A stretch of 30,049 bases of DNA, taken from positions 1 through 30,049 of IMG/VR virus record IMGVR_UViG_3300044300_002822; one strand, 5' to 3'. Both the position numbers and the translations under genes were made by a program. Shown in pieces: positions 157 to 23,255 of this stretch (its first letter is position 1; every line of letters starts with the position of its first letter). The notes under the pieces are model-generated. The model did not search any database and was not told where the DNA came from. It was given only the letters and a program-made list of their open reading frames with translations. This stretch comes from a virus (Duplodnaviria > Caudoviricetes).

Positions 157-474
157 CTAACTCAAATGTCCTTCCCAGGTTCGGAATGGTTTGTTTTCTG
201 GTCTATCTAGCCATTTTAATAGTTTTTTTGTAGACCCTTTTGGACCTAGTATTCCATCTCTATAAAGTTTTGCTGCTATTACCGGGGGAATTTCTGCAAC
301 ATGCCTGACTTCATTCTTCCTGTCAACAGGTTGCTCTCTGAGGTACTTTGTGTAATCTAATGTTGGCTGGATATCCTGCTTTTTAGTGATATGAAATTTA
401 CCATCACCATCTTCTGTATGGACATCTGTTTTCACTCCATCCACCACACCCATTGGGGTTGTATTTAAAGGCAT
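157..474 (-). CDS. Conserved small phage protein downstream of major capsid gene
   Basis: 105-aa ORF with GGAGAG upstream; its stop abuts the next ATG; HVAEIP motif. Confidence 0.75.
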   Translation of the reverse strand: MPLNTTPMGVVDGVKTDVHTEDGDGKFHITKKQDIQPTLDYTKYLREQPVDRKNEVRHVAEIPPVIAAKLYRDGILGPKGSTKKLLKWLDRPENKPFRTWEGHLS

Positions 475-507: not shown

Positions 508-536
508 AAAAAACCCCTCCCGGTTAAAAGAGGGGT
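508..536 (-). terminator. Rho-independent terminator after major capsid gene
   Basis: Minus strand ACCCCTC-N10-GAGGGGT followed by a T run, about 20 nt after the capsid stop codon. Confidence 0.8.
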
Positions 537-557: not shown

Positions 558-2020
558 TCAACCACCACAATCACCTACAAGCCCATGTGCGAGCTCGTTG
601 TCGATTTGGAGTCCACCTTCCCATATGATGTATTTACCCAAAGCATCACCAGTTCGCCCAATCTCCTGAGTCTCGAAAGCCCTCAGTTGTGCTACTTTGG
701 CGTATTCTGGATTGATAATTAATACATCTTTTTCGCCTCTTATGAAACGATCAGCTTGTACTGCATACGTTCCAAAGTCACCAATGTAGACAGACACATT
801 TGCCTGAACTTCATCAGCTTTTGTTGGAAGTGCAACAACCTGGGTTGCAGATGCTCTACCTGAAAATGCTGAAGCCAATTGTTTGTTTGCCGAACTCATA
901 ATCATCTGAGTTGGCTGGTCTCCAGAATTGTCGTAGCAGAGTTTTAAAACTGCTTTTAAAAGCGTTTCTGTGAATGCTCTTGCAGTTCCATCTGTTCTGG
1001 CAGTTGAACCTACTGCAGCCTGGGCTGCTGTTGGGTTGGCACCAGAACCACCACCTTTAGAGATGTTGGTTGCTAACTTAGCCAGGATACCTGCAGATGT
1101 TCTTGCAGTACCTGCAGCACCAGAATTTACTACTGAGTTGCCAAGCATGAGCTTTTCTACATCACGCTTTAATGCACGAGACATGATACTAAGCTGATGG
1201 GCCATGGCATCATTTACGCCTGCCCTGTCAATTGCAGCCTGAGTACCAGTTACTGCTGCACTCCTGTACAGAATCTGACATTGATTGGAGTTGCGAACAG
1301 TATTATTTGCTGCTGCTGCTGCAATCGTATCACCTTCTAACTGAGCAGTTGTACTAACTGCTGGCATTATCTTCACCCAGGTTCGTTACTTCTGGGCCGT
1401 TCAAAAGAACTGCTGCATATTCAACTATGCAGATGGGACTATATCATAACCCTGACAGGGTCTCTTGCGCTTCCAACCACTTGGTTGTACTTCCTAATGG
1501 AATAGTCTCTGAACCTTCCTCAAATGAGGCTTGGCTGCTGATCAACAGGTCTTGTCTTTCCAGCAATTCACAAGATTTGCAATAACTATTACTAGTTAAG
1601 GCCTCCATATTAAAGGGCTTCAGTTTGGTGTTCAAATAAAGTATTGCTTACGCTACGTTTACCTGCCATTGAGACAAAAGGTGTCTCTTCCGGGGATATA
1701 TTATCAGTTTTGTTATCATGGCTTTTTTAATTACCATTTCTCATAATTTCTTATGAGCTCAGACTATATCATCACCATCATGGTGCCGGGAGCTCTTGGA
1801 GGGGTTATCGTTTGTGCTACTCACCCTCTAGTCGTTGAACCTTACTGCTACTTTTGCACTTCACAGTCTTGGCTGCTGATTGTCTCCAGCATTACCTGGT
1901 AAGATGTTCCAGCAATTCACCCGGTTACGATCCAAATATTCAGATCACATCCGAAAGATCTTCTCTAATACCTTTTGCACCATCGCTATGAGTTGTGAAA
2001 GCGTTGGTTACGAGAGCCAT
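558..2020 (-). CDS. Major capsid protein (DUF5309/SU10-like), spliced: exon1 2020-1942, exon2 1704-1613, exon3 1364-558; 325 aa
   Basis: Joined exons (79+92+807=978 nt) give an uninterrupted frame: MALVTNAFTTHSDGAKGIREDLSDVI-Y-NISPEETPFVSMAGKRSVSNTLFEHQTEAL-PAVSTTAQLEGD...KRDVEK...SVYIGDFG. These motifs match this capsid family. GAAAGGAAA precedes the ATG and the gene follows the scaffold gene. Confidence 0.92.
1365..1612 (-). ncRNA. Group I self-splicing intron 2 in major capsid gene (248 nt, no ORF)
   Basis: Exon ends in U (GCCCTT), intron ends in G (ATAATG). IGS GGAGGC. Core motifs: P AATTGCTGGAAA, Q GATCAGCAGCC, R GTTCAGAGACTA, S ATGATATAGTCC. P3 TCTTGTG/CGCAAGA, P8 ACCCTG-TC-AGGGT. Extra hairpins between P7 and P3' (IA-like). 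Confidence 0.93.
1705..1941 (-). ncRNA. Group I self-splicing intron 1 in major capsid gene (237 nt, no ORF)
   Basis: Exon ends in U, intron ends in G (AAACTG). P1 GAUCU/GGAUC with U-G wobble. Core motifs: P AATTGCTGGAA, Q AATCAGCAGCC, R GTTCAACGACTA, S ATGATATAGTCT. P3 CCGGG/CCCGG, P8 CACCA/TGGTG, P9 CTCATAA-GAAA-TTATGAG. Confidence 0.93.
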
Positions 2021-2055
2021 AAATTTCCTTTCATTTCAGTTAATGTTAATCGGGT

Positions 2056-3000
2056 TTACAACATCTGTTTAAAAACTTCAGTTGCATCAGACATTTTGCC
2101 GGATTTTGCAAGTTTCATTTTGGCCTTAGTAACAGTAGTATGCTTTCTGGGCTGGTTCCCTGCTGAACCGGGAGTTGCAGGCCGGATTGCCTCTTTTGCA
2201 GGTTTGAGTCTAACTTTCCCCTTACCTGAAAGTCCTGCTGCTTTCATTCCTGACCTCAGGGCTAAAACTGCTCTATGGTCATAAATGTTTGCCAGCTCTT
2301 CCTGGGAGTAGCCTAATTCTTTTAAAGCATACTGCCTGATTTGGGACTTTTCCTGTTTCATCACCTCAGGATCTTTCCATTCAGGAATGGTTTCAATCAG
2401 AGTCTGGTGTTGCTGAGACAAATACTGTTGCATCTGAGCCTGTTGCTCTTGAGCCTGCTGTTGTTGCATTCTCTCATGCTCCATTCTCAATTCAGCTTGT
2501 TTTTCCTTCCTGGATCTTGCATCTTCTTTTTGCTTCATCCATTCCAGAGGATCTGCTTCATATAACTGGTCCCAGTCAGGTTCTTTTGGCTGCTGGAGTT
2601 CCTGTTCTGAAACTAATCGGTCCAGGTTCTGCTGATACCTTAACTGCTCCTGCTTGGCTGCCTCCTGGGCTACCTCAAGTTGCTTGCGTGATTCCGCTAA
2701 TGCCTGTGTTTTTTTAGTATAATCACTCTGCCTTAGATAACCATCTTTCAGTTCAGGGAGGGTGACCTCATAATCCTGACCATCCAGTTTAACCGCATGG
2801 TATTCTTCTTCAGGTTCCTCCTGTTCTTCAATCTGTTCATCTTCTTCAGTAGTAATTTCAGCATCTGCTTCAGCTTCAACCTCTTCAGTTTCTGCTTCTA
2901 CTTCTGCCTCTGTTTCTGCACTTACTTCCTGTTGATTGTCGGGTTCCCCGGTCAACATTGACTGAAATGCCTGTTCTGCTTGCTGGAGTCCGCTTGCCAT
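2056..3000 (-). CDS. Capsid scaffolding protein
   Basis: Acidic N-terminus, VKLDGQDYEVTLPELKDGYLRQSDYTKKTQALA motif, Q/E coiled coil, immediately upstream of the capsid gene. Confidence 0.88.
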   Translation of the reverse strand: MASGLQQAEQAFQSMLTGEPDNQQEVSAETEAEVEAETEEVEAEADAEITTEEDEQIEEQEEPEEEYHAVKLDGQDYEVTLPELKDGYLRQSDYTKKTQALAESRKQLEVAQEAAKQEQLRYQQNLDRLVSEQELQQPKEPDWDQLYEADPLEWMKQKEDARSRKEKQAELRMEHERMQQQQAQEQQAQMQQYLSQQHQTLIETIPEWKDPEVMKQEKSQIRQYALKELGYSQEELANIYDHRAVLALRSGMKAAGLSGKGKVRLKPAKEAIRPATPGSAGNQPRKHTTVTKAKMKLAKSGKMSDATEVFKQML

Positions 3001-3021: not shown

Positions 3022-3288
3022 TTAAGATCGTTTTTTGATCAGTTTATTAAGTTGAGCTTTATGTAGCTCACCTCTTTCCATTATAACACCTAAATGTGCC
3101 CTAACCTGTGCTGTTGCCCAGACAAGTTGCCATAGCACTTCTCTACCTTCAGAATCTTTCAAGTCTGAAGATTTCCAGGTGTCTAAATAAAGTTTTTCCA
3201 GTTCCTCAAATGCCTTAGTGAGGACCGGGTCATTTATCAGTTCTTTTGCCCTTTGGGAGTCTTTTAACTCCTGGTCTATCTCATCCAT
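3022..3288 (-). CDS. Small conserved head-module protein preceding scaffold
   Basis: 88-aa helical ORF (RAKELINDP...REVLW) in the usual portal-scaffold slot. Confidence 0.75.
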   Translation of the reverse strand: MDEIDQELKDSQRAKELINDPVLTKAFEELEKLYLDTWKSSDLKDSEGREVLWQLVWATAQVRAHLGVIMERGELHKAQLNKLIKKRS

Positions 3289-3290
3289 AA

Positions 3291-5591
3291 TTAATACAAT
3301 AGAGATTGAGGAGTTAACCCCAGGTTTTGGAGTTGACTGGGGTTTAAAGTGTGGAGTTCTGAGAGGACATTTCTGAATCGGTCACCGGAATATGTAGCAT
3401 TGCTATCTCGTATGCCCCCTCCAGTTCTTCCGGGGTTATTGATTGAGCCTGTCCCTGGTGGTCCTGCATTAACAGATCCAGTTGGTTGTCCAGAATATTT
3501 TTCTGCTGCTTCACTAAGCCCGGCAACCTGTCCCCCAGGGTTGAGGCTACCATTTTCATTAATATGTCTAACTGCATTGGATCGTATTGCATTGTCACCT
3601 TTCCATTTCATTATTACCAGTTCAGGCATACCAAGAGACTCATCCCACCCGGTTGATCTCCAGTATTCCAGAAGGTCCTGATATTTAGTTTCTGAACCAC
3701 CAAATTTAGGGCTCCTTACATATTTTTCATCAAAAGGCACCCTACCAAGTTCAACAAACCCATAATCATTATACACCTTTGGCAGAAAACCTCTAGGATA
3801 TTTTTGACTTGGGACTGCATATGCATCAAGTGCTGTTGCACCCTCCTCAATTGCCTTACCCATTACTCCTGGTGCTGCAACACCTTTTGCTCCAGGTTCA
3901 TTATTTACAACTCCTACTACTGCCTTTTCATTTGGTCCAAGATCAGGGTGATTAAACCCATACTCATCTGCATAGTTTGTTCTTTTAATCCCAAAAAAGA
4001 CTTGGGTGTCTTTTCCTCCTAATTGGAAAACATTAAAACTACCACTCTTTATACCCTGCTGGAGTTCCTTCAGGTTATACTCAGTTAGTGTGGCAGATGC
4101 ATCAGAATTCCTGATTGCATTTATAAAGTCTGTTGGAGAGGCACCACCTCTACCTACAGGCATCAATGTTGTTCTCCAGTTCCCCTTTGCTGCTTCCAGA
4201 GCAAGTTGGGCCTGTTTTGGAGATTGAATGTGTTGAAGGGGAGTGAATTGGATATTTTTTATCTTTTCTTTTGTTAAAGTTTCAACAGGAGGTCCTAAGT
4301 CTGATGCCCTTAATATATTATGAATCTTTGCACCTCCCTCTCTTTTTGATTTGGAAAAATCTGAAAATACAGATTCATAACTTGTAGGTGCAGGAAACTT
4401 TCCAACTACCTCCCCTTTAACTCCATATTTATATGATGGGTGTTTTGTAGTTCCAGGATGAACTCCCAATTCAACAAGATTGTCTGGCCCCTTATCCAAC
4501 TTAATAAGGATCATGGCATCACCAAGATTGGTTCCATATGTTGAAGGATCTTCCAATTTTCTTGAAATCTTAGTGATATTAGGTGCCCCCAAAATTTGAC
4601 CTTGAGAAGATGCTAACTGCTGGACAATTCTTGCTCTAGCATCAAAAGATAAATTTTCCAGATATTTCTGATATCCTGGAGCACCAAATCCAGGGAAATT
4701 CTCAAGTGCCTGTTTGACTGAATTTTTCATTTTTGGGGTAGTCTGCCTGACTAACTTATCTAACCTTTTTAAATTACGTTTCCCAATTCTTCCATCCCTT
4801 ACATATGCATCCATTGTATTTAATGTTGAATCTGCAAATGTTGTGTTACCTCTATGAGCCTCATGCCCCATTGAAACAACTACTGCATGATCTGCTTCAT
4901 CCAGGTTCCTAAGTATTTTACCTTGACCACCTTGTACTGCCCAGACTACATTTGCATCTCTTGAGGATTCTAAATTGGGGAACTTCTTACCTCCATACAA
5001 CCCTACCCCCTGATCCAACTTGGAAGAATCAATCCCAGTATAAACAGTTCCTCCATCAGTCAGATCTGCATGTATAGGGAAAACTTTTAAGTCTTTTAAA
5101 TCTGCAGGAGTCAGGTCTGGGATATCATCAATATATTTTGGAACTTCAGCAACTGGGACAACTGGAGAACTTGATTTGGGAGGGGTACTAGATAATTTAG
5201 AACCTTTTCTAATTGTTCTTGCAAGATCAATAGGAACAGATAATGCCCCACCAACATGAGGACCTAGCATAGTTGATAATCCAACATCTGCAGACTCCAG
5301 AAGGGACCATATCCCAGGCTCAATTGCTCCTGTATAGTCTCCTTTTTCAAGTAGAGTTTTTGCTTTTTCTGCTTCTTGAGCAGATCGGATACCTGACCTG
5401 ATAGTACCTTCTACTGGAGTAACATCTTTTCTAAGTTCAGATAATAGGTAGGTTGCATCTTCTGGAGTACCGGGAAGGGTATCTTCCCATACTGGGAGAG
5501 TACCAAAATATGATCTGATAGAATCAAAAAAGGAACTAGGTCTACCCTGTCTCAGTTCTGATTGGTACTGGTCATAAACCTGTTTAGGCAT
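3291..5591 (-). CDS. Large multidomain protein with C-terminal GNAT-like domain (polyvalent-protein-like, possibly virion-delivered effector)
   Basis: 766-aa ORF overlapping the portal stop. The segment VVNNEPGAKGVA...AIEEGATALDAY...FLPKVYNDYGFVELGRVPFD resembles GNAT motifs A/B. Function is inferred. Confidence 0.6.
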   Translation of the reverse strand: MPKQVYDQYQSELRQGRPSSFFDSIRSYFGTLPVWEDTLPGTPEDATYLLSELRKDVTPVEGTIRSGIRSAQEAEKAKTLLEKGDYTGAIEPGIWSLLESADVGLSTMLGPHVGGALSVPIDLARTIRKGSKLSSTPPKSSSPVVPVAEVPKYIDDIPDLTPADLKDLKVFPIHADLTDGGTVYTGIDSSKLDQGVGLYGGKKFPNLESSRDANVVWAVQGGQGKILRNLDEADHAVVVSMGHEAHRGNTTFADSTLNTMDAYVRDGRIGKRNLKRLDKLVRQTTPKMKNSVKQALENFPGFGAPGYQKYLENLSFDARARIVQQLASSQGQILGAPNITKISRKLEDPSTYGTNLGDAMILIKLDKGPDNLVELGVHPGTTKHPSYKYGVKGEVVGKFPAPTSYESVFSDFSKSKREGGAKIHNILRASDLGPPVETLTKEKIKNIQFTPLQHIQSPKQAQLALEAAKGNWRTTLMPVGRGGASPTDFINAIRNSDASATLTEYNLKELQQGIKSGSFNVFQLGGKDTQVFFGIKRTNYADEYGFNHPDLGPNEKAVVGVVNNEPGAKGVAAPGVMGKAIEEGATALDAYAVPSQKYPRGFLPKVYNDYGFVELGRVPFDEKYVRSPKFGGSETKYQDLLEYWRSTGWDESLGMPELVIMKWKGDNAIRSNAVRHINENGSLNPGGQVAGLSEAAEKYSGQPTGSVNAGPPGTGSINNPGRTGGGIRDSNATYSGDRFRNVLSELHTLNPSQLQNLGLTPQSLLY

Positions 5592-7834: not shown

Positions 7835-8581
7835 TCAAACGCCACACATTCCTTCACATTCATCTGTGAAAAAATTAAGTTGCCCCTGCTCTTCCATAGT
7901 CCTGAAATCAACATCACGCAATGGCTTTAAGCTGCGATGTAAATATAGTTTTCCTTCATAAGTGGGGCAATTCCTTAACGCTTCATCCACCTGGCAAGTC
8001 TCCTCAAACTCTTCAGGCCACTTATTCTTAATCTCTCTCCATTGCTCATCATTATGATAGGGACAACCAAGACAGGCAGATTTGGGTGGTACTTTATATC
8101 CTTTCTTTTCCATCCAAGTCATACAGTCATTCCTGCTCATCTCCAGATCAATTAAGGGCCAGGTGTGTTCAATGTACTGGACCCTGCTTGGTTTCATCCT
8201 GGCCCATTCATCAGTTGAAATTCCCATTTGCAGGATTACTGGATTACCTTTTGATGAGTGTGGCTTGCAGAACTTTTGTACTGGTCTGATCTTAAAATCG
8301 TAAGTACATTGTCTTTTCCCCATACCCTTGTTTGAAGTAAAAAGTGGTATCGGACGGAAGTGTTTATCCTTTAGCATTTTATCTTTCAAATTCCCTGCAT
8401 CAACCCTGACAACTGGAAAATTTAAGTAACTCTCCAGCCAGTCAAGATGTTTATATACTGCTTTCGGTTCCCATCCAGTATCAGCAAATACTGCATAGTC
8501 AGGTGGTTCAATTTCTTTATGATGAGCCAGGAGTACCAGAGTGGTTGACTGAACTCCTGCACCAAGACTAATTATTTTCAT
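7835..8581 (-). CDS. PAPS-reductase-like (PP-loop, adenine nucleotide alpha-hydrolase fold) Fe-S protein
   Basis: ISLGAGVQS PP-loop variant, FADTGWE, RQCT, GIS.DE..R, PL, KSACLGCPY and terminal ECEGMCGV cysteines. Confidence 0.8.
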   Translation of the reverse strand: MKIISLGAGVQSTTLVLLAHHKEIEPPDYAVFADTGWEPKAVYKHLDWLESYLNFPVVRVDAGNLKDKMLKDKHFRPIPLFTSNKGMGKRQCTYDFKIRPVQKFCKPHSSKGNPVILQMGISTDEWARMKPSRVQYIEHTWPLIDLEMSRNDCMTWMEKKGYKVPPKSACLGCPYHNDEQWREIKNKWPEEFEETCQVDEALRNCPTYEGKLYLHRSLKPLRDVDFRTMEEQGQLNFFTDECEGMCGV

Positions 8582-9459
8582 TTCTTTAAATATTCTTCAA
8601 AAGTACATGAATTAAATATCTGTCTCCTGTTAACCCACCTGACAAATTTTTTCTGGTAAGGGTCAGTTTTGTCATAAGGCATTGCATATGGGTCACACCC
8701 CCAACCTTTCAGCATCATCACCCTATGCATGTCCTCTTCTGGAGTAGAATCATAACCAATCAACACATAAAACTGCATCTGGTATGGTTTTATACCTGCA
8801 TCAACAACTCTCTGGTAACCACGCTTAATAACTTTCTCATCCTTAATCTGGTCCCAGGCAAATGTGACCTGACTACTGGTGTTATTTATGTTCCTGAACT
8901 TAACTGATGCTAATGCCTGGGCTTGCCTTTCAGAAATTATCCGAATGTTAAGACCCTGGGAAAAATTAACTCTAAGATCCAACTCTTTTATTTCTTCAAT
9001 CCTGTCTTTCCATTCTGGATTGCCGAAAAAGTCATTATCCAACAGCACCAGAAAATTAGATGATCTCTGGGTCCATAATTTTTCAATGGTGTTTACTGAT
9101 TTAGGTTTCCCCTCTTTCTGGGGAACAACACAAAATGAACAATTAAATCTGCAACCACGTTGTGCAAAACCAATATTATGGGGATAATTGTAAAAAGAAT
9201 AATCAGGGTCCATTTCTTCAATCTCATTGGGCAGACTGATCTTGAGATCAATACCAGTCCCTCCAACAATCATGTCATCCTGAAGATCTGCCCCTGAAGA
9301 AAAGTTAAATATCTTGGAAGCATAAACTTTATCATACAGAGAATGAGCAAGAGGCATGTAATGTTCAACCTCATCTCCCATCAGTTTATGCCATGCACTA
9401 ATTTTCATTAATGCCAGGTTTGGAATCTTGGAATCAACATCCAGCAAACCTATTTTCAT
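8578..9459 (-). CDS. Radical SAM protein with short N-terminal cobalamin-binding-like region
   Basis: RGCRFNCSFC (CxxxCxxC), LLDNDF, YVLIGY motifs; N-terminal PNLALMKISAWHK..GD.V; ATGA overlaps at both ends. Confidence 0.88.
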   Translation of the reverse strand: MKIGLLDVDSKIPNLALMKISAWHKLMGDEVEHYMPLAHSLYDKVYASKIFNFSSGADLQDDMIVGGTGIDLKISLPNEIEEMDPDYSFYNYPHNIGFAQRGCRFNCSFCVVPQKEGKPKSVNTIEKLWTQRSSNFLVLLDNDFFGNPEWKDRIEEIKELDLRVNFSQGLNIRIISERQAQALASVKFRNINNTSSQVTFAWDQIKDEKVIKRGYQRVVDAGIKPYQMQFYVLIGYDSTPEEDMHRVMMLKGWGCDPYAMPYDKTDPYQKKFVRWVNRRQIFNSCTFEEYLKK

Positions 9460-13490: not shown

Positions 13491-13618
13491 TTATCCTCCT
13501 CACACCTGACCTCAATTGATCCTCCAGGATTGATATATACCATGATTGCAATAACCACTATTACAATTCCTGTGAATACCCCAAACAGGTATATGCCTAT
13601 GAACATTCCTATTGTCAT
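13487..13618 (-). CDS. Small membrane peptide (43 aa)
   Basis: Manual translation MTIGMFIGIYLFGVFTGIVIVVIAIMVYINPGGSIEVRCEEDK; ATGA overlaps at both ends; GAGGTG RBS. Confidence 0.75.
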   Translation of the reverse strand: MTIGMFIGIYLFGVFTGIVIVVIAIMVYINPGGSIEVRCEEDK

Positions 13619-14700
13619 GTCACCTCTTTCATATGCCTGATTATTTCATAGGCCACCTGAGGCACTATGGCATTTCCAATGGCCTTTAATCTTTTTGCCC
13701 TATCAGGTATTTTCACTCCGACTCTTGGGATGTCAGGTTCGTCCATCCAAGTGGATATCCCATCAGATAATGTTCCACCCAGTCCGGGTTGAGTGACCCC
13801 TGTACTGCATCTCTCCCCCCCTCCTGTTTCACTACAACTGTTGTTAATGATTCCTGTGAACCCTTCTTCCCCCTGCTGCGATCCTGGAATCCCTGTCTTG
13901 CTTCTGAAGATACTGGAGTCGGCCACATCACCACTCCTGCCAACTTGCCTTTTTTCGCCACTTTCTCCCAGTTCACATTCTCCCCGGAATCCTTCCAATC
14001 TCTTGCATTCGGAGTTGGCCACATTTTTACTGCCATTGTCAGGGGAGTTCCTCCCTGTGCATATTTCTTCTCCCTTTCGGTTGCTGAGTCCTGAGTTGGA
14101 GTAGGCCACATCTCTGGAGTCGCTACCTGTTCCGCCAGGCAACCCGGATAATCCTTCCTGCCTATTGACTCCCTGTATGCTTTCCTCTTCTCTCTCCTCC
14201 CCTCTTTTGGTTCTATCTGAACTGTACTGGGAGTGAGCCACAATCCAGACCCGCATTCTTCTATGGGGAGCATCTTTGGCCAGAGCTCCAATATGGAAAA
14301 CCTGGGACTGATATCCTTCACCTTCCAGGTCAGCAAGCACCTCCTGGAGCCCCAGTTTAATGTGTCCAGTAACATTCTCCGCAAGTACCCAATTGGGCCT
14401 GCATTCTTGAATGACTCTAAACATTTCCGGCCAGAGGTGCCGGTCATCATTCTGGCCTCTACGCCTCCCGGCTTGACTGAATGGCTGGCAGGGATATCCC
14501 CCGGTAAGTAGGAATGGGGAAACAATTCCATTTGCTCTATACGTTTTGATGTCGTCATGTATTGGTACTCCTGGAAAATTCTTGGTTAATACTTTCTGTG
14601 CAAATTCTTCATTCTCAACAAACTGGACAGTCTCAATTCCTGCCCATCTTGCTGCAAGTGCAAATCCACCTATTCCTGAAAATAAATCCAGATGTGTCAT
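13615..14700 (-). CDS. DNA (cytosine-5) methyltransferase, catalytic (alpha) polypeptide
   Basis: Motif I DLFSGIGG, IV GGYPCQPFS, VI ENV, VIII HRRMRVW, X RLKAIGNAIVPQVA; no motif IX in this frame. Confidence 0.93.
   Translation of the reverse strand: MTHLDLFSGIGGFALAARWAGIETVQFVENEEFAQKVLTKNFPGVPIHDDIKTYRANGIVSPFLLTGGYPCQPFSQAGRRRGQNDDRHLWPEMFRVIQECRPNWVLAENVTGHIKLGLQEVLADLEGEGYQSQVFHIGALAKDAPHRRMRVWIVAHSQYSSDRTKRGEEREEESIQGVNRQEGLSGLPGGTGSDSRDVAYSNSGLSNRKGEEICTGRNSPDNGSKNVANSECKRLEGFRGECELGESGEKRQVGRSGDVADSSIFRSKTGIPGSQQGEEGFTGIINNSCSETGGGERCSTGVTQPGLGGTLSDGISTWMDEPDIPRVGVKIPDRAKRLKAIGNAIVPQVAYEIIRHMKEVT
13713..14558 (-). CDS. Nested alternative-frame methyltransferase beta polypeptide (WxTP repeats plus motif-IX-like end)
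   Basis: 281-aa open frame wholly inside the MTase gene, GGAG 8 nt before its ATG, four WxTP repeats, terminal LNPDWVEHYLMGYPLGWT. Confidence 0.75.
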   Translation of the reverse strand: MTTSKRIEQMELFPHSYLPGDIPASHSVKPGGVEARMMTGTSGRKCLESFKNAGPIGYLRRMLLDTLNWGSRRCLLTWKVKDISPRFSILELWPKMLPIEECGSGLWLTPSTVQIEPKEGRREKRKAYRESIGRKDYPGCLAEQVATPEMWPTPTQDSATEREKKYAQGGTPLTMAVKMWPTPNARDWKDSGENVNWEKVAKKGKLAGVVMWPTPVSSEARQGFQDRSRGKKGSQESLTTVVVKQEGGRDAVQGSLNPDWVEHYLMGYPLGWTNLTSQESE

Positions 14701-15137: not shown

Positions 15138-15507
15138 CCCTCTGCAGTTTCTTGAAAATTTCCTTCACCTTATCAGGCATTGGCACCTTCTGAGATTCAG
15201 GTCCTGAAAGCATCTTATGATGTTCCTCACCAAGTCTTTTCATATAAACAGGATCTTCACATGCTTTCCTCCTGGGATTCTCTGGAGTCCCTTCTCTGAT
15301 ATCCTTCACAGTTGGAAAAAAAGCATTGGTCTTAATATGCTCCTGAAATGATCTTTCAATCCTCTGGGCAGGCATATCAGCAAGTGATTGTGCCCAGAAT
15401 GCAATATCTGTTTTATCAAGTTTCCCGAACTCCCTGACATGACTGTGATAGTTCTTCTCACATGCTTTCAGGGCTTTTAATAAAACTGCATATTTAGTCT
15501 CATCCAT
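15109..15507 (-). CDS. Putative helicase loader (G39P/lambda-P-like)
   Basis: W...L.D.....I...F..HI....FFPTV.DI pattern; located in the replication module. Confidence 0.55.
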   Translation of the reverse strand: MDETKYAVLLKALKACEKNYHSHVREFGKLDKTDIAFWAQSLADMPAQRIERSFQEHIKTNAFFPTVKDIREGTPENPRRKACEDPVYMKRLGEEHHKMLSGPESQKVPMPDKVKEIFKKLQRDVRERNANA

Positions 15508-15916
15508 GAGTCTCCTCCTTCATTTTTTTAAATTCCTCATAAGTGAATTTGTTGGATTTTTGAACATTACACTCCCGGCAACAAACCACTAAATTGGTAG
15601 GGTCCATGACCTCTTCCCTGGTCGATAATGCTGATACCGGGATCTTGTGATCCAAAACAAATGAATCCCTCTCTGGCTTCAGTCTCTTCTGGCAGTAGTG
15701 ACATGGTGCAGTATTATCAGACAATCTTGCTTCCATCCATAGCTGGATATAAATAGCTCTGGGGTAACCACCTTTCCTGCTCCTGACATTACCTGATGCC
15801 TTTTGCTTCTTATAAGCCATCTTGTGCTTGCAGGACATGCTACAATACTTCTGGGTTTTTTTATTTGATTCATCAGGGACATACTCCTGCCCACAAAATT
15901 CACAAATCTTGTACAA
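15500..15916 (-). CDS. HNH endonuclease with N-terminal zinc finger
   Basis: CHYC...LDHKIP...NLVVCCRECNVQK; N-terminal CEFC...YCSMSC. Confidence 0.88.
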   Translation of the reverse strand: MYKICEFCGQEYVPDESNKKTQKYCSMSCKHKMAYKKQKASGNVRSRKGGYPRAIYIQLWMEARLSDNTAPCHYCQKRLKPERDSFVLDHKIPVSALSTREEVMDPTNLVVCCRECNVQKSNKFTYEEFKKMKEETHG

Positions 15917-18889: not shown

Positions 18890-18918
18890 ACCTTAAATTC
18901 TTTTTGCAGATAGGTCAA
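18890..18918 (-). promoter_or_regulatory. Sigma70-like leftward promoter
   Basis: TTGACC-17 bp-TAAGGT with an upstream A/T tract. Confidence 0.55.
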
Positions 18919-19047
18919 GCAAATTGTGAACCAGATTAAAAAAAATAAAAGTTTATTTTTTATGTGTAAAACTACAAAAAAACTTCCCCTGTAAGTTACT
19001 GATATAATGTCAGAACAAAAATAATTAAAAAAAAGTGAAAATAACAC

Positions 19048-19080
19048 TTGACAACATTGTGAATATGTGTGAATATATAT
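19048..19080 (+). promoter_or_regulatory. Sigma70-like rightward (early) promoter
   Basis: Perfect TTGACA at 19048 preceded by A tracts; -10 region imperfect (GAATATATAT). Confidence 0.45.
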
Positions 19081-19138
19081 GCATACTAAGAATAACCTTA
19101 GTATGATTATTAATTTAAAGGAGAGAAAAGGAGAGAAC

Positions 19139-19762
19139 ATGAAAGTATTAGCAGGAAACAAAGCATTCCCAGAAAGAACATTAGCCAGTCAGAATATTCT
19201 TGACCTGCTGGAAGAACATGCTTTTAGTGGTTGGGGAACTGGTGGTGGTTGTATAGCCATGAGAAAAGATTATGATTCTGGCATTGCAATGATTATTACT
19301 GACAATGATGCAGGTCTTGATACTCTTGATGAACAAATTCTAATAGGTTTTGATGATGAGAATGGAGATCCTATTGAATTGGAAGGAACATACAATAACA
19401 ATTTTCAACACTCTGAAGCTAATGATATTCTTTCAGAGATTCACAGATTGGAGTCAAATCTTTTAACTGCAATGCCTAATTCAATTGAAACTAATTTTTA
19501 TAACATTCTGGATACAGAAGATTCATGCATGAATTTTTTGCTTTATTTTGATAAGGATCATGCATCTTTTTGTGAGTATGAAGATATGTTTGATTGCAAA
19601 AGAGGGACACCAGAATTCCTTAAAATAATACAGGATAGTGTTCGTAGTTTTTTAAGTCCAGAACATGATTGGTTTACTGATGTAATTGGAGACAAAATCT
19701 CAAGTTGGAATTCTGCCCAAGATATAATTGATGATTACATAAAAATTAAGAAAGGAGAGTAA
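19139..19762 (+). CDS. Acidic early hypothetical protein
   Basis: AAGGAGAG RBS before ATG 19139; 207 aa, D/E-rich, WGTGGGC motif. Confidence 0.8.
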   Translation: MKVLAGNKAFPERTLASQNILDLLEEHAFSGWGTGGGCIAMRKDYDSGIAMIITDNDAGLDTLDEQILIGFDDENGDPIELEGTYNNNFQHSEANDILSEIHRLESNLLTAMPNSIETNFYNILDTEDSCMNFLLYFDKDHASFCEYEDMFDCKRGTPEFLKIIQDSVRSFLSPEHDWFTDVIGDKISSWNSAQDIIDDYIKIKKGE

Positions 19763-19764
19763 AT

Positions 19765-19935
19765 ATGAGTTGGAGAAAAAACATACCTATTGAACAGGAA
19801 ACACATGATGCGGTTGTTGCTGAATTAAATCGTATTGAAGAAAAAGGTCATGGCAGACCACCTATTACTCAATGGGTAAAAAGAGCAATATTTGAAAAAA
19901 TAACTAAAGATAATAATAACGATAAACAATGGTAA
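19765..19935 (+). CDS. Ribbon-helix-helix-like small regulator (56 aa)
   Basis: Manual translation MSWRKNIPIEQETHDAVVAELNRIEEKGHGRPPITQWVKRAIFEKITKDNNNDKQW; strand-helix-helix pattern; GGAGAG RBS. Confidence 0.7.
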   Translation: MSWRKNIPIEQETHDAVVAELNRIEEKGHGRPPITQWVKRAIFEKITKDNNNDKQW

Positions 19936-19944
19936 GGAGAGAAC

Positions 19945-20277
19945 ATGAAAAACAAATCACCAAAAGCAACTGAAAAACTTTTAGCCAGAGCAAAAGAATT
20001 ATGTCTAAAAGCTGAAATTATAGAAAATTCCAGAGGTCATTACAGGAGACATTCTCCTCTTGGCTCAACTTCAGTTCCTCAGAAAGTAATTACAATTGAT
20101 GGCATTAGATTTTCAGTTGGAGGAGCAAAACAATATTTAACTGCAAAAGAAAAGGAGATACCCACACAATCATTTCAGGAAGTCTTAGAAGAAGAAGAAG
20201 GAAGGTTAAGACAAAAAGACCTGAGACAGCATCAGATGTATCAGGATGAAGATCTTAATTATTCAGGTAATCGTTAA
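19945..20277 (+). CDS. Early hypothetical protein
   Basis: 110-aa ORF with AAGGAGAG RBS. Confidence 0.75.
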   Translation: MKNKSPKATEKLLARAKELCLKAEIIENSRGHYRRHSPLGSTSVPQKVITIDGIRFSVGGAKQYLTAKEKEIPTQSFQEVLEEEEGRLRQKDLRQHQMYQDEDLNYSGNR

Positions 20278-20294
20278 TCAAAAAAGGAGAGAAC

Positions 20295-20471
20295 ATGACA
20301 GATTTTGAAGCAGCAATGATTGCTGAAGGAGTAATAGAAGCACAAAGTGAAGAACAGTTAAATGAAGCATGGCAGCATCTAATTGATACTGGACTTGCCT
20401 GGTCACTACAGGGATGGTTTGGGAGATGTGCTAAACAATTAATTGAAGAAGGAATTTGTAAGGAGGCATAA
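20295..20471 (+). CDS. Small early protein (58 aa)
   Basis: Manual translation MTDFEAAMIAEGVIEAQSEEQLNEAWQHLIDTGLAWSLQGWFGRCAKQLIEEGICKEA; AAGGAGAG RBS; TAATG coupling to the next gene. Confidence 0.8.
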   Translation: MTDFEAAMIAEGVIEAQSEEQLNEAWQHLIDTGLAWSLQGWFGRCAKQLIEEGICKEA

Positions 20472-20677
20472 TGGCACATTTACATTTAGTTGAAGATAGT
20501 CATGGTGATGTAGTCGATCAGATTATTTTTTGTTCTGACTTCTGCAACCAGGATTATTGTTTAAGAGAAGGTGTTGACTACCAGGGGTGGTTTGGTTGTC
20601 AGGAAATTTCAATAACTGAACCTTGTGCTAACTGTGAATCAGAAGTGCAGGGGGTAGAACCAAAGGAGGCAGTATGA
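20471..20677 (+). CDS. Small Cys-rich early protein
   Basis: AGGAGG RBS; CSDFC and CANC motifs. Confidence 0.75.
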   Translation: MAHLHLVEDSHGDVVDQIIFCSDFCNQDYCLREGVDYQGWFGCQEISITEPCANCESEVQGVEPKEAV

Positions 20678-20997
20678 AACACATAATCACCTTCATATCA
20701 CTCTGTATCGCACCATTATTGTTTCAGGTGCAACTACATGCAACAGAGTATAAAGTTGTCTGTAAGAGAGTTACAGGGTGTCCTGTAGTCAATGGAACAT
20801 GCCCTACCTGTGAGATAGTGCAGAATGGTAACACATTCCAAAAAGTGACTAATGAACAGATAAGAGAGTGGGGTAAAAGAATGAAGGAAGAGATGAAGTA
20901 TGACTACTCTTCACTTGAAAATGATGACCCCCCTAGAAGATCAAAAGGGTGGGAATGGGATGGTCCTACCTGGAAGGGACTTAGAGTCTTAAACTAG
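20674..20997 (+). CDS. Putative exported Cys-containing protein
   Basis: AGGAGG RBS; signal-peptide-like N-terminus (MKHIITFISLCIAPLLFQVQLHA). Confidence 0.65.
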   Translation: MKHIITFISLCIAPLLFQVQLHATEYKVVCKRVTGCPVVNGTCPTCEIVQNGNTFQKVTNEQIREWGKRMKEEMKYDYSSLENDDPPRRSKGWEWDGPTWKGLRVLN

Positions 20998-23255
20998 AAC
21001 AGTAATGATCTTGTCAGATCACTTGCATAGTCATAGATTTTGGGTGGAGTATCCCAATCCCTATAACCTGGAGAGAGCATGGTTGGTAGTAATGCCGGAG
21101 CCTGTCTCTCTCCTGCACGTTGATTAGCCCACCTTTTTTCTTCTGCTTTTAAATCCCTTAATCCCCTTCTCATATTTTCTGTACCGGGTGCTGTGAGTGT
21201 TCCACCCATGCCCTGCATCTGGCTTTTTACTGCCTGATCCTCTAATGCAGATGATACATCTCCTGCCAATCTTGGTGCTCCTCTTAGTGACTGGATTGTA
21301 TCAATAGTCTTAGTTAATGGAGATGCTTCACCCCGAATGAGTTTTTCAATCTGCTGTCTCTGGAATGTTGGTGATCCTTTCAAGATTTGCTTGTTTAAAT
21401 AATCCATATCACCAATTGTTTTAATCTTCTTGATAAAGTCAAAAGCAACCTCTGGAGTCTTGAATAGATATCTCAGCTTCTCTGGTTCTTCTTCAGAAAA
21501 TAACCTCAATATCTTGGACTCATTTGCCATTGACAGGTTTGTATTTTGAACCTTATTATACATGCCATATGCATATCCCATTCGATATGCTTGCTTCTGG
21601 GAATCAGTAAACCCATTCATGGCCCTTCTCACCATATCACTTGCAACTTTTGTATCCTTATGGTGATTCATTCCAAGATCAAATGCTTTTGAATTTTTGT
21701 GTGCATTCTCCCAGATACCAACAGCTTTTGTATATTCAGGTGATTGTGCTTTTAATTCTTTATTTATTAAATTCCTTAGATTCATCAATTCACCCTCATC
21801 CAGTTTTGCCAGGGTATCACCTTTAATAGTCTTAGTCATTTTTTGGATTTCCTGGTCAAGATATCTCTTGAAAAGGTCATACTGCATAATAGGTACAGGA
21901 CCTCCTGCTTTTTCACCCGGTAATGATAAAGGAACATCAGTACCCCAGGGACCTCTTCCCTCACCTGCATCAATCCCTTTTGACATTTTCTTTTTAACCA
22001 ACTGAGGCATTTTAAATCTCATTTTCTTCCAGGCATTCCTGACCATATCTCCTACATCATCTTTCTGTTGCAGGAGTCTGTTAATCTCTGTTGCAACTTG
22101 TGGAAGGTCAACAAATTTAGGGTCTGCAATATCATAAAATGGTTGGGCAATAACTTTAGCAAATCTTGATATTCTTTCTTTAAATGCTTTTGGATCAGGA
22201 ACTCTCCTGGCTAAATTCTTCTTGATCAGTCCTCTTGCAATCCCTGGGAATTTTTCTGCTCTTTTTGTTAGTGTCTCAGTTGCATCTGCCATAACTGATG
22301 GTGATGCCAGGGTACTTACTTCTGCTGCTCTCTGTACCATCCCCCCAGGTTTTGCAAGATCTGCAATAGTCATTATATCTGAAATTTCTGTATCACCCCT
22401 TTTGATAATTTCATCCAGCAACTCATCAAACTCACTAAGTTCCATGTTGTCCATCTTGGTGGCACTAATAACAGATTGCAGGGATTTCCTGTTACCATCT
22501 ACTCCCTTACTTAAAAGTTTGTTTACTCCATAATCTGCAACACCTCCTGCTGAACCTAAAGGAGCTCCTACCACTACACCAGTTTTTGCATAATCAATTG
22601 CTTTATCTGATTTTAACCTGTCATGTATGTTACCCTCAGATTCTCCAACTCCATACAGGTATCCTTCTATTCCTCCAGTTATTCCTCCAGCTAATCCTCT
22701 CTTGAATAAATTCTTTACCCATTCTCCTGCTACTGGTGCAATTGCAGGTAACTTAGTCAGTAATTTTGCAGTTAAACTGAATGGTATTGTGAGACCTCCT
22801 GCAACCTGTGATGCAGTTGATGGACTCATACCCATAACATTAAGGTCCTTATTTTCTGGAGACTCCCTAAATTTCTTTATCTTACCCTGTACAGTCTTTA
22901 ATTCTTTTTCAAATGTATCTCCACCAGTATTTGATCTTAACCATGCTTCTAATTCATCAGCACTATTAAATGAGATTCCCTGTCCATATTCCCTAAAGAC
23001 ATCCACAAGATAATCAGTAAATTTATCCTGGGCTTTTTCCCTATTCTCCCAATCTTCTTTACTAAGTTCTCCTACAAAAGGGACATCTACTGTAGGAGAA
23101 AACTCCTTCATTTCAGATGGAGGTATCAGGGTTCCTGTTTCTCTCATCCCCTGGAGGTCTACACCCTTATCCTTAAATATCTGGATGATCTCTTCTTCAG
23201 TATGCCCAGAGTCTTTTAATAAATTATAGTTCCTTAATATAGTGCTATTCTTCAT
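20994..23255 (-). CDS. Internal virion / DNA ejection protein (large)
   Basis: About 753 aa; GQGISFNSADELEA motif and Gly/Ala-rich glycine-zipper segments; last gene of the late arm. Confidence 0.7.
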   Translation of the reverse strand: MKNSTILRNYNLLKDSGHTEEEIIQIFKDKGVDLQGMRETGTLIPPSEMKEFSPTVDVPFVGELSKEDWENREKAQDKFTDYLVDVFREYGQGISFNSADELEAWLRSNTGGDTFEKELKTVQGKIKKFRESPENKDLNVMGMSPSTASQVAGGLTIPFSLTAKLLTKLPAIAPVAGEWVKNLFKRGLAGGITGGIEGYLYGVGESEGNIHDRLKSDKAIDYAKTGVVVGAPLGSAGGVADYGVNKLLSKGVDGNRKSLQSVISATKMDNMELSEFDELLDEIIKRGDTEISDIMTIADLAKPGGMVQRAAEVSTLASPSVMADATETLTKRAEKFPGIARGLIKKNLARRVPDPKAFKERISRFAKVIAQPFYDIADPKFVDLPQVATEINRLLQQKDDVGDMVRNAWKKMRFKMPQLVKKKMSKGIDAGEGRGPWGTDVPLSLPGEKAGGPVPIMQYDLFKRYLDQEIQKMTKTIKGDTLAKLDEGELMNLRNLINKELKAQSPEYTKAVGIWENAHKNSKAFDLGMNHHKDTKVASDMVRRAMNGFTDSQKQAYRMGYAYGMYNKVQNTNLSMANESKILRLFSEEEPEKLRYLFKTPEVAFDFIKKIKTIGDMDYLNKQILKGSPTFQRQQIEKLIRGEASPLTKTIDTIQSLRGAPRLAGDVSSALEDQAVKSQMQGMGGTLTAPGTENMRRGLRDLKAEEKRWANQRAGERQAPALLPTMLSPGYRDWDTPPKIYDYASDLTRSLLF

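Follow-up and report, generated by a model that had tools for sequence, protein, structure and literature searches.

In an uncultured marine tailed phage, we found the three exons of the major capsid protein gene separated by two group I introns without open reading frames (ORFs), and we demonstrate the identity of the introns, their exact boundaries and the absence of ORFs within them. The explanation that we regard as probable is that both introns are likely self-splicing in the late mRNA, that they are likely near-neutral passengers of the gene, and that they have been spread by homologous recombination between co-infecting phages and not by an endonuclease of their own. The case bears on the question of how group I introns that encode no endonuclease maintain themselves and spread where phage genomes are compact, and its added value is a well-resolved mobility record of ORF-less introns: a natural series of intron-less, one-intron and two-intron alleles, together with insertions at four sites, an intron that is chimeric and an almost identical copy beyond a deep division of the capsids, in which the ribozymes (237–251 nt) are easy to assay in vitro.

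The capsid gene and its genomic setting

The window, as we call the whole stretch of DNA analysed, comprises the 30,049 bases of a virus record, a linear metagenomic contig with an estimated completeness of 81%. Judged by sequence profiles, the gene that hosts the introns is a major capsid protein gene of the SU10_MCP (DUF5309) type: exon 3 matched PF17236 with 194.7 bits, against a cut-off of 24.1, and an intact relative (L006) matched the solved capsids 9ny2 and 7z45. The protein encoded by exon 1 was matched at 100% in two further relatives (L003 and L005). Upstream of the capsid gene follow the scaffold gene and then the portal and terminase genes, and no second capsid gene was detected among the window proteins scanned with Pfam and phrog profiles. 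Capsids of cultured phages were at most 39% identical (165 records), while a genome scan returned 19 loci, all of them Bradyrhizobium or Bradyrhizobiaceae prophages with 38–40% identity, and none of these 19 loci had an intron match.

Table 1. Features of the capsid region of the window; positions are those of the window.
Feature	Position	Strand	Remarks
Conserved gene, no assigned function	157..474	-	downstream of capsid; phrog_3982
Terminator-like hairpin	514..533	-	downstream of capsid gene; chance level
Capsid exon 3	558..1364	-	807 nt including stop codon; PF17236 SU10_MCP, E 3e-57; phrog_1328 major head protein
Intron 2	1365..1612	-	248 nt, ORF-less group I; in-frame stop at its start; RF00028
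P7.1, G-U-A linker and P7.2, intron 2	1474..1502	-	IA2 signature
Internal guide core, intron 2 (P1)	1602..1605	-	U.G at splice site; from fold
Capsid exon 2	1613..1704	-	92 nt; supported by frame and homologues
Intron 1	1705..1941	-	237 nt, ORF-less group I; in-frame stop at its start; RF00028
P7.1, intron 1	1799..1828	-	single long helix with internal loop; one pair double-changed in 4 of 9 rows
Internal guide, intron 1 (P1)	1928..1933	-	U.G at splice site; G faces exon position -2
Capsid exon 1	1942..2020	-	79 nt, 26 codons plus one base; last letter U
Shine-Dalgarno-like purine run	2026..2031	-	precedes ATG at 2020; read from sequence, function putative
Head scaffolding protein gene	2056..3000	-	directly upstream of capsid; phrog_3927, E 3e-57

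Intron boundaries and reading frame

The Rfam search of the whole window (E ≤ 1) returned two matches, both of them to RF00028 on the minus strand: positions 1413–1623 (86.5 bits, E 5e-21), which correspond to intron 2, and positions 1740–1977 (75.9 bits, E 8e-18), which correspond to intron 1. Both introns exceed the gathering score of the family, which is 50 bits. Deleting 1941–1705 and 1612–1365 leaves exons of 79, 92 and 807 nt that form a single frame of 325 aa, with U as the last letter of both 5' exons and G as the last letter of both introns. An early stop is met if neither intron is removed, if only one is removed or if exon 2 is skipped, and in the last case the frame is shifted. Within the ranges scanned, an open frame was left by 150 sets of U/G boundaries, so that frame restoration was rejected as sole proof of the boundaries and homologues were needed to fix the intron ends. 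The alignment ran gap-free over both junction points in all 17 inspected relatives without intron 1, and the junctions cannot slide because the flanking letters differ. The preliminary description of this DNA, made from the letters and a list of ORFs, had named the inserts as group I introns with precisely these ends and had joined the remainder into a 325-aa major capsid protein; the Rfam scores, the gap-free homologues and the assignment of the product to SU10_MCP and phrog_1328 bear it out.

The longest stop-free stretch in six frames spans 51 codons in intron 1 and 72 codons in intron 2, which leaves no space for a homing endonuclease gene in either. The introns had been described as ORF-less, and indeed no homing endonuclease ORF was found inside intron 1 or intron 2, all measured relatives being 237–251 nt long. 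When unspliced, 12 out of 12 copies of intron 1 and 4 out of 6 intron-2 types meet a stop immediately, and the idea that unspliced introns append a degradation tag was rejected on this ground; an in-frame stop at the start of an intron is described as a likely folding aid (PMC3984707). It had also been foreseen that gene callers would mis-annotate this gene, and they do miss exons 1 and 2, returning 272 aa in place of 325 aa for the window and 287 aa for one-intron relatives; such N-truncated capsids corrupt phylogenies that use this marker gene of a widespread family of marine phages.

Folding, covariation and subgroup

Single-sequence folding recovered P1, P3, P4, P5, P6, P7.1, P8, P9 and P9.1 in both introns, and additionally P2, P7.2 and P9.2 in intron 2, while the fold of intron 1 had no P2 and one long P7.1. 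The folding z-scores of the two introns (-0.89 and -1.89) are weak when taken alone. P7 is a pseudoknot with the guanosine-binding pair; its complementarity over 5 bp was taken from the cmscan alignment and the letters themselves, and both of its strands co-vary in three relatives of intron 2 (L050, L143 and L145). The core helices P3–P9 and the P, Q, R and S elements were found in both introns, and here too the folds, the cmscan alignment and the covariation agree with what had been read from the letters. In the P1 test, the terminal U of the 5' exon paired with a G in both introns.

According to RNAalifold, 25 of the 66 predicted pairs changed on both sides among intron-1-type sequences (9 rows) and 30 of 73 among intron-2-type sequences (6 rows), counts that are taken over RNAalifold's own structure from few and related rows, with many of the double changes contributed by a single divergent row (L238). 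Introns 1 and 2 are only 66% identical to each other and are therefore separate acquisitions.

More than half of viral group I introns are reported to belong to subgroup IA2 (PMC11835236), whose marks are P7.1 and P7.2 hairpins with a G-U-A link (PMC3428280) and an extended domain 9 composed of P9.0, P9.1 and P9.2 (PMC4227781). Intron 2 shows the P7.1/G-U-A/P7.2 arrangement at 1502–1474 and the extended domain 9, with P9, P9.1 and P9.2 in the fold and P9.0 from sequence, and by these published structural marks its predicted structure places it in IA2. Intron 1 does not show the P7.1/P7.2 mark, having instead one long P7.1 with an internal loop, and may resemble IA3.

Distribution among close relatives

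The exon-3 protein query recovered 38 viral loci, 4 of which end short of site 1. Nine of these loci contained intron 1, two intron 2 and three a third intron (one partial), and two independent contigs (L001 and L002) have introns 1 and 2 at the positions found in the window. The third intron (L029, approximately 3197–3443; also L030 and, partially, L033) is 247 nt long, IA2-type and ORF-less, and interrupts this capsid gene near codon 122 in carriers that have neither of the two introns of the window. Overall, four different insertion sites are used.

Haplotypes were drawn from the exon-3 loci together with pattern scans, giving 110 exon-2-anchored sequences, the window included, that collapsed into 53 haplotypes; anchorless sequences were dropped. 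Intron 1 was carried by 13 out of the 52 haplotypes with the 5' exon in view and absent from the other 39, proportions that refer to non-independent haplotypes and to pattern scans biased towards window-like alleles. Exon position -2 at site 1 was C in all 13 carrier haplotypes, opposite the guide G, and A or U in 38 of the 39 haplotypes without the intron. The remaining haplotype (L113) has no intron at site 1 and yet has the intron-linked C at -2, and it represents either an allele from which the intron was lost precisely or a permissive site that stands empty. A C at -2 without intron 1 was also found in two distant capsids (L109 and L144). At site 2, the last six exon letters of the window were present in 3 out of 3 carriers, versus none of 47 intron-less haplotypes. 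The 18-nt intron-2 pattern had seven viral matches, five of which fell by chance outside introns. No endonuclease-bearing long version of intron 1 was recovered with the core pattern, an exact pattern that misses divergent copies and whose 12 matches were all contigs already in the set.

Sequences with and without the intron were interleaved in the tree built from 33 capsids, and two close pairs (L008/L007 and L026/L027) have nearly identical capsid proteins with the intron as the only difference. The capsid genes of this family are mosaic along their length, and ordinary recombination in co-infections can thus carry introns. We also observed that the 20 nt before site 1 (1944–1963) are unchanged at synonymous positions in 11 out of 17 intron-less relatives, two of which have about 70% protein identity; co-conversion in the past is one possible cause, and a signal in RNA or DNA is another.

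Probable movement between distant capsid lineages

Patchy presence in close relatives is accompanied by a near-identical intron 1 in a distant capsid lineage. The capsid gene of L050 has 58% nucleotide and 41% amino acid identity to that of the window, while its intron 1 is 98.3% identical and occupies the same codon, and the two sequences share only about 5 nt upstream and about 7 nt downstream of it. L050 and the window group together in the intron tree (100/99), and in the capsid tree L050 lies in a far clade (100/100). Intron 1 has likely jumped between lineages, since the coat gene of so distant a virus holds an almost identical copy of it. A query with the L050 protein fetched 80 loci, 2 of which had introns. 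In the clade of L050, L145 holds an older intron 1 at the same site (86.7% identical to that of the window) as well as a second intron, and L143 holds the second intron and no intron 1. The second intron of the L050/L143/L145 clade is inserted 2 nt upstream of site 2 of the window, and in L050 and L143 it is 72–74% identical to intron 2.

A chimeric intron, cut by the contig end, was observed at site 2 of L106 (2353–2462). Its first 37 nt are identical to intron 2 of the window and its core is different; it follows a window-type exon-2 end, in which 26 nt, including letters outside the reach of the guide, are identical to those of the window. In L238 we observed an intron-1-type (1362–1598) and then an intron-2-type sequence (approximately 1775–2021) in a capsid gene of another family, phrog_14242. 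This pair is carried by L235, L236, L238 and L240, identical over the stretch printed; the phrog_14242 capsid gave no tblastn match to the capsid of the window, and its PF17236 score was weak and below the cut-off.

These observations suggest, tentatively and with less than even confidence, a broader reading, namely that two families of capsid-specialist, ORF-less ribozymes spread among small marine phages without an endonuclease, with the 5' guide module and the core exchanged separately by intron-to-intron recombination, crossing between capsids of 41% identity and settling in other capsid families in the same order. If true, the endonuclease-free spread of capsid-specialist ribozymes would be a natural and testable route of intron mobility.

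Exon junctions in RNA libraries

Junctions were sought in assembled contigs of eight out of 21 listed RNA runs, all eight from marine or seawater libraries. Three contigs from three studies, with depths of 3.4–5.9, join the exons at the exact predicted points and are the first RNA hints for these two junctions. At site 1, a contig of 154 nt (X6, depth 3.84, short side 38 nt) joins 1704 to 1942, omitting exactly 1705–1941 and retaining the C at -2; it fits the two-intron DNA of L001 and L002 with a 26-nt loose end, three differences in exon 1 and none in exon 2. At site 2, two contigs (X4, depth 5.89; X5, depth 3.4) join 1364 to 1613, omitting exactly 1365–1612, with window-type flanks and an exon-2 end made of the carrier-linked letters (3/3 carriers, 0/47 intron-less).

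X4, X5 and also X2 combine the intron-1-less letter at site 1 with a window-type exon 2. This combination is absent from the fetched DNA, and therefore unsampled intron-less genomes exist, which could be the source of the site-2 junction of X4 and X5; that exon-2 stretch occurs in only two viral contigs, both with two introns. Intron-less alleles of relatives were recovered in X1 and X2, no junction in X3 and X7, and no exon-2-skipped form in any of the eight runs, where stretches without coverage carry no weight. Unspliced intron sequence was present in the libraries X1 and X8, and a contig of X8 ending at 1942 overlaps an intron-1 contig by 30 nt, possibly an assembly fork at the splice site. 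From these low-depth contigs, all from RNA libraries, splicing in vivo of both introns is likely, intron-less DNA being the other possible source of the junctions. The metatranscriptome search proposed in the preliminary description has yielded exact joins with intron-linked letters.

Splicing, persistence and spread

Two-step self-splicing is the standard route for the group I family. By this chemistry, each guide would pair with the exon end to form P1 with its U.G pair, a guanosine bound in P7 would attack the 5' site, and the exons would be ligated behind the terminal G. Each intron opens with an in-frame stop, which may release ribosomes ahead of the ribozyme core, and production of the capsid protein would require the removal of both introns. 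As to spread, closely related phages would swap segments of the capsid gene, and a distant lineage would be reached by intron-to-intron exchange with an older copy at the same site; L145 holds such a copy, which would explain the jump to L050. The patchy and interleaved presence speaks for tolerated passengers in a conserved essential gene and against a needed checkpoint, and fits the "conserved intron refuge" that had been offered as an alternative at the outset.

Collaborative (trans) homing, in which a free-standing endonuclease encoded elsewhere cuts intron-less capsid alleles and so drives ORF-less introns, appears rather unlikely to us. It is a published mechanism for ORF-less phage introns, and the published case (PMC3984707) resembles the window in its ORF-less intron, conserved phage gene and signs of recent spread; moreover, the exon letters adjoining both sites travel with the introns, and the synonymous conservation upstream of site 1 may be a trace of repeated co-conversion. 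The window differs, however, in that an endonuclease gene next to the introns or co-occurring with them was not found. The neighbourhood of the capsid gene showed no nuclease gene, either in the window or in seven intron-bearing loci with ORFs listed, where part of the flanking ORFs was scanned, and no free-standing endonuclease adjacent to or travelling with the introns was detected in records that are mostly fragments and show the linkage of distant genes only in part. The HNH gene of the window (15500–15916) lies 13.5 kb away, its homologue among five records occurred only in the intron-less complete genome, and PF01844 was matched in none of four intron-bearing records (55–95% complete); this gene was rejected as the homing partner, having no linkage to the introns. 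In addition, the few nucleotides of flank homology between L050 and the window offer little for repair.

In a model of mobility at the RNA level, excised introns, plentiful because so much capsid mRNA is made, would reverse-splice into guide-matching capsid mRNAs and become fixed by reverse transcription and recombination. The guide of intron 1 pairs perfectly, over 7 nt, with the native exon end of the L050/L144/L145 clade and, in the clade of the window, with two extra G.U pairs; the minimal flank homology between the window and L050 also suits this route. It can further be noted that all eight RF00028 matches in the five intron-bearing records searched whole (the window and four others) sit in capsid genes, although this shows only that those records have no introns elsewhere, because they were chosen via capsid introns; a further, complete record, the fifth beside the window, had no RF00028 match. 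We consider this route improbable, since no reverse transcriptase family match was found among the 25 window proteins scanned, the exon letters that travel with intron 2 in L106 extend beyond the reach of the guide and point to DNA-level exchange, and the older same-site copy in L145 makes intron-to-intron recombination sufficient. About as improbable is the regulatory checkpoint raised in the preliminary description, by which capsid output would be tied to GTP, Mg2+, temperature or the translation state of the host. Both splices are obligatory, compensatory changes conserve the structure, and a "molecular on-switch" and growth-state-dependent splicing in T4 are discussed in PMC11878797. The structure has to be conserved for splicing alone, however, no ligand-sensing insert is visible in the folds, and the capsid intron of mycobacteriophage LittleE is reported to be efficiently spliced (PMC3706429). 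Most relatives lack the introns (39/52 haplotypes in the case of intron 1), four sites are used and sister genomes differ; the checkpoint is not supported because the introns are gained and lost among capsid genes that are almost the same. Finally, a dead gene or an assembly artefact has a negligible chance of being the explanation: it could draw on the linear, metagenomic nature of the contig and its completeness of 81%, but the same insertion points in L001 and L002 largely refute an artefact, and exon 3 is intact, the helices covary and the scanned proteins offer no second capsid gene to replace this one. Passenger introns spread by recombination thus remain the reading that we prefer.

Comparison with known systems

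Published examples of capsid genes with group I introns exist, and the presence of such introns in a gene of this kind is not itself new. LittleE has a capsid group I intron spliced in vivo, BAKA and Optimus have a tail intron, that of BAKA being 265 bp, ORF-less and shown to be spliced, and a capsid intron of Tuc2009 is named in the same source (PMC3706429). The introns of LittleE, BAKA and Tuc2009 are like those of the window in that they lie in a capsid or late structural gene, follow a U, end in G and occur in some relatives only. In LittleE, however, the capsid gene has a single intron, which contains an endonuclease ORF, whereas in the window the SU10_MCP capsid gene of an uncultured marine phage has two introns that differ in type, contain no ORF and enclose an exon of 92 nt. 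Among crAss-like phages, the Delta and Zeta groups have group I introns in MCP genes, one of which is in five fragments (PMC7886860), and Jug phages have 2513 introns with a mean of about 206 nt, for which metatranscriptomes supported splicing in 37 out of 76 tested (PMC12880540). The split MCP gene of the former and the many short introns of the latter resemble the situation described here, but those are large, intron-rich gut genomes with many endonucleases, while the window is small and has only two introns, both in the capsid gene. Given these cases, the surprise at a capsid location that was implied in the preliminary description is overstated. In the main texts of the full-text literature searched, we found no report of introns in SU10_MCP/DUF5309 capsid genes.

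The DNA polymerase introns of Pf-WMP3, phiI and W31 (IA2; PMC3428280) are like intron 2 in their G-U-A-joined P7.1/P7.2 and extended P9, and differ from it in that intron 2 has no HNH ORF and a capsid gene as host; intron 1 differs from the IA2 phage introns in being without the two-hairpin P7 arrangement. The best matches of intron 2 in cultured phages had 66–75% identity and included DNA polymerase and HNH-linked introns.

The tail tube gene orf142 of Staphylococcus phage Twort has three introns, all ORF-less. Together with the polymerase gene of SIOphi, it is among the multi-intron genes with exon skipping (PMC11878797), and both are like the capsid gene of the window in having several group I introns with short exons between them. 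Here, in contrast to Twort and SIOphi, skipping of exon 2 shifts the frame and so could give no useful variant.

Other features of the window

Downstream of the capsid gene, the product of the conserved gene at 157..474 had no Pfam match and no nuclease family match. The terminator-like hairpin that precedes it in position is not above chance, because two such sites were seen versus 2.8 expected in shuffles, and a terminator-like site in P9 of intron 2 was rejected as being at chance level. A 766-aa gene without a known family (3291–5591) separates portal from scaffold in the head module, and several relatives have different-looking ORFs in its place, one of them with DUF7178. Genes for a PAPS-reductase-like and a radical SAM protein (7835–9459), possibly involved in DNA or tRNA modification, lie between terminase and portal. 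The Pfam match of a C5 DNA methylase gene (13615–14700) spans only residues 1–163, and a 281-aa open frame (13713–14558) overlaps this gene on the same strand. Finally, an AT-rich island at approximately 18900–21000 is transcribed from the plus strand, opposite to the rest of the genome.
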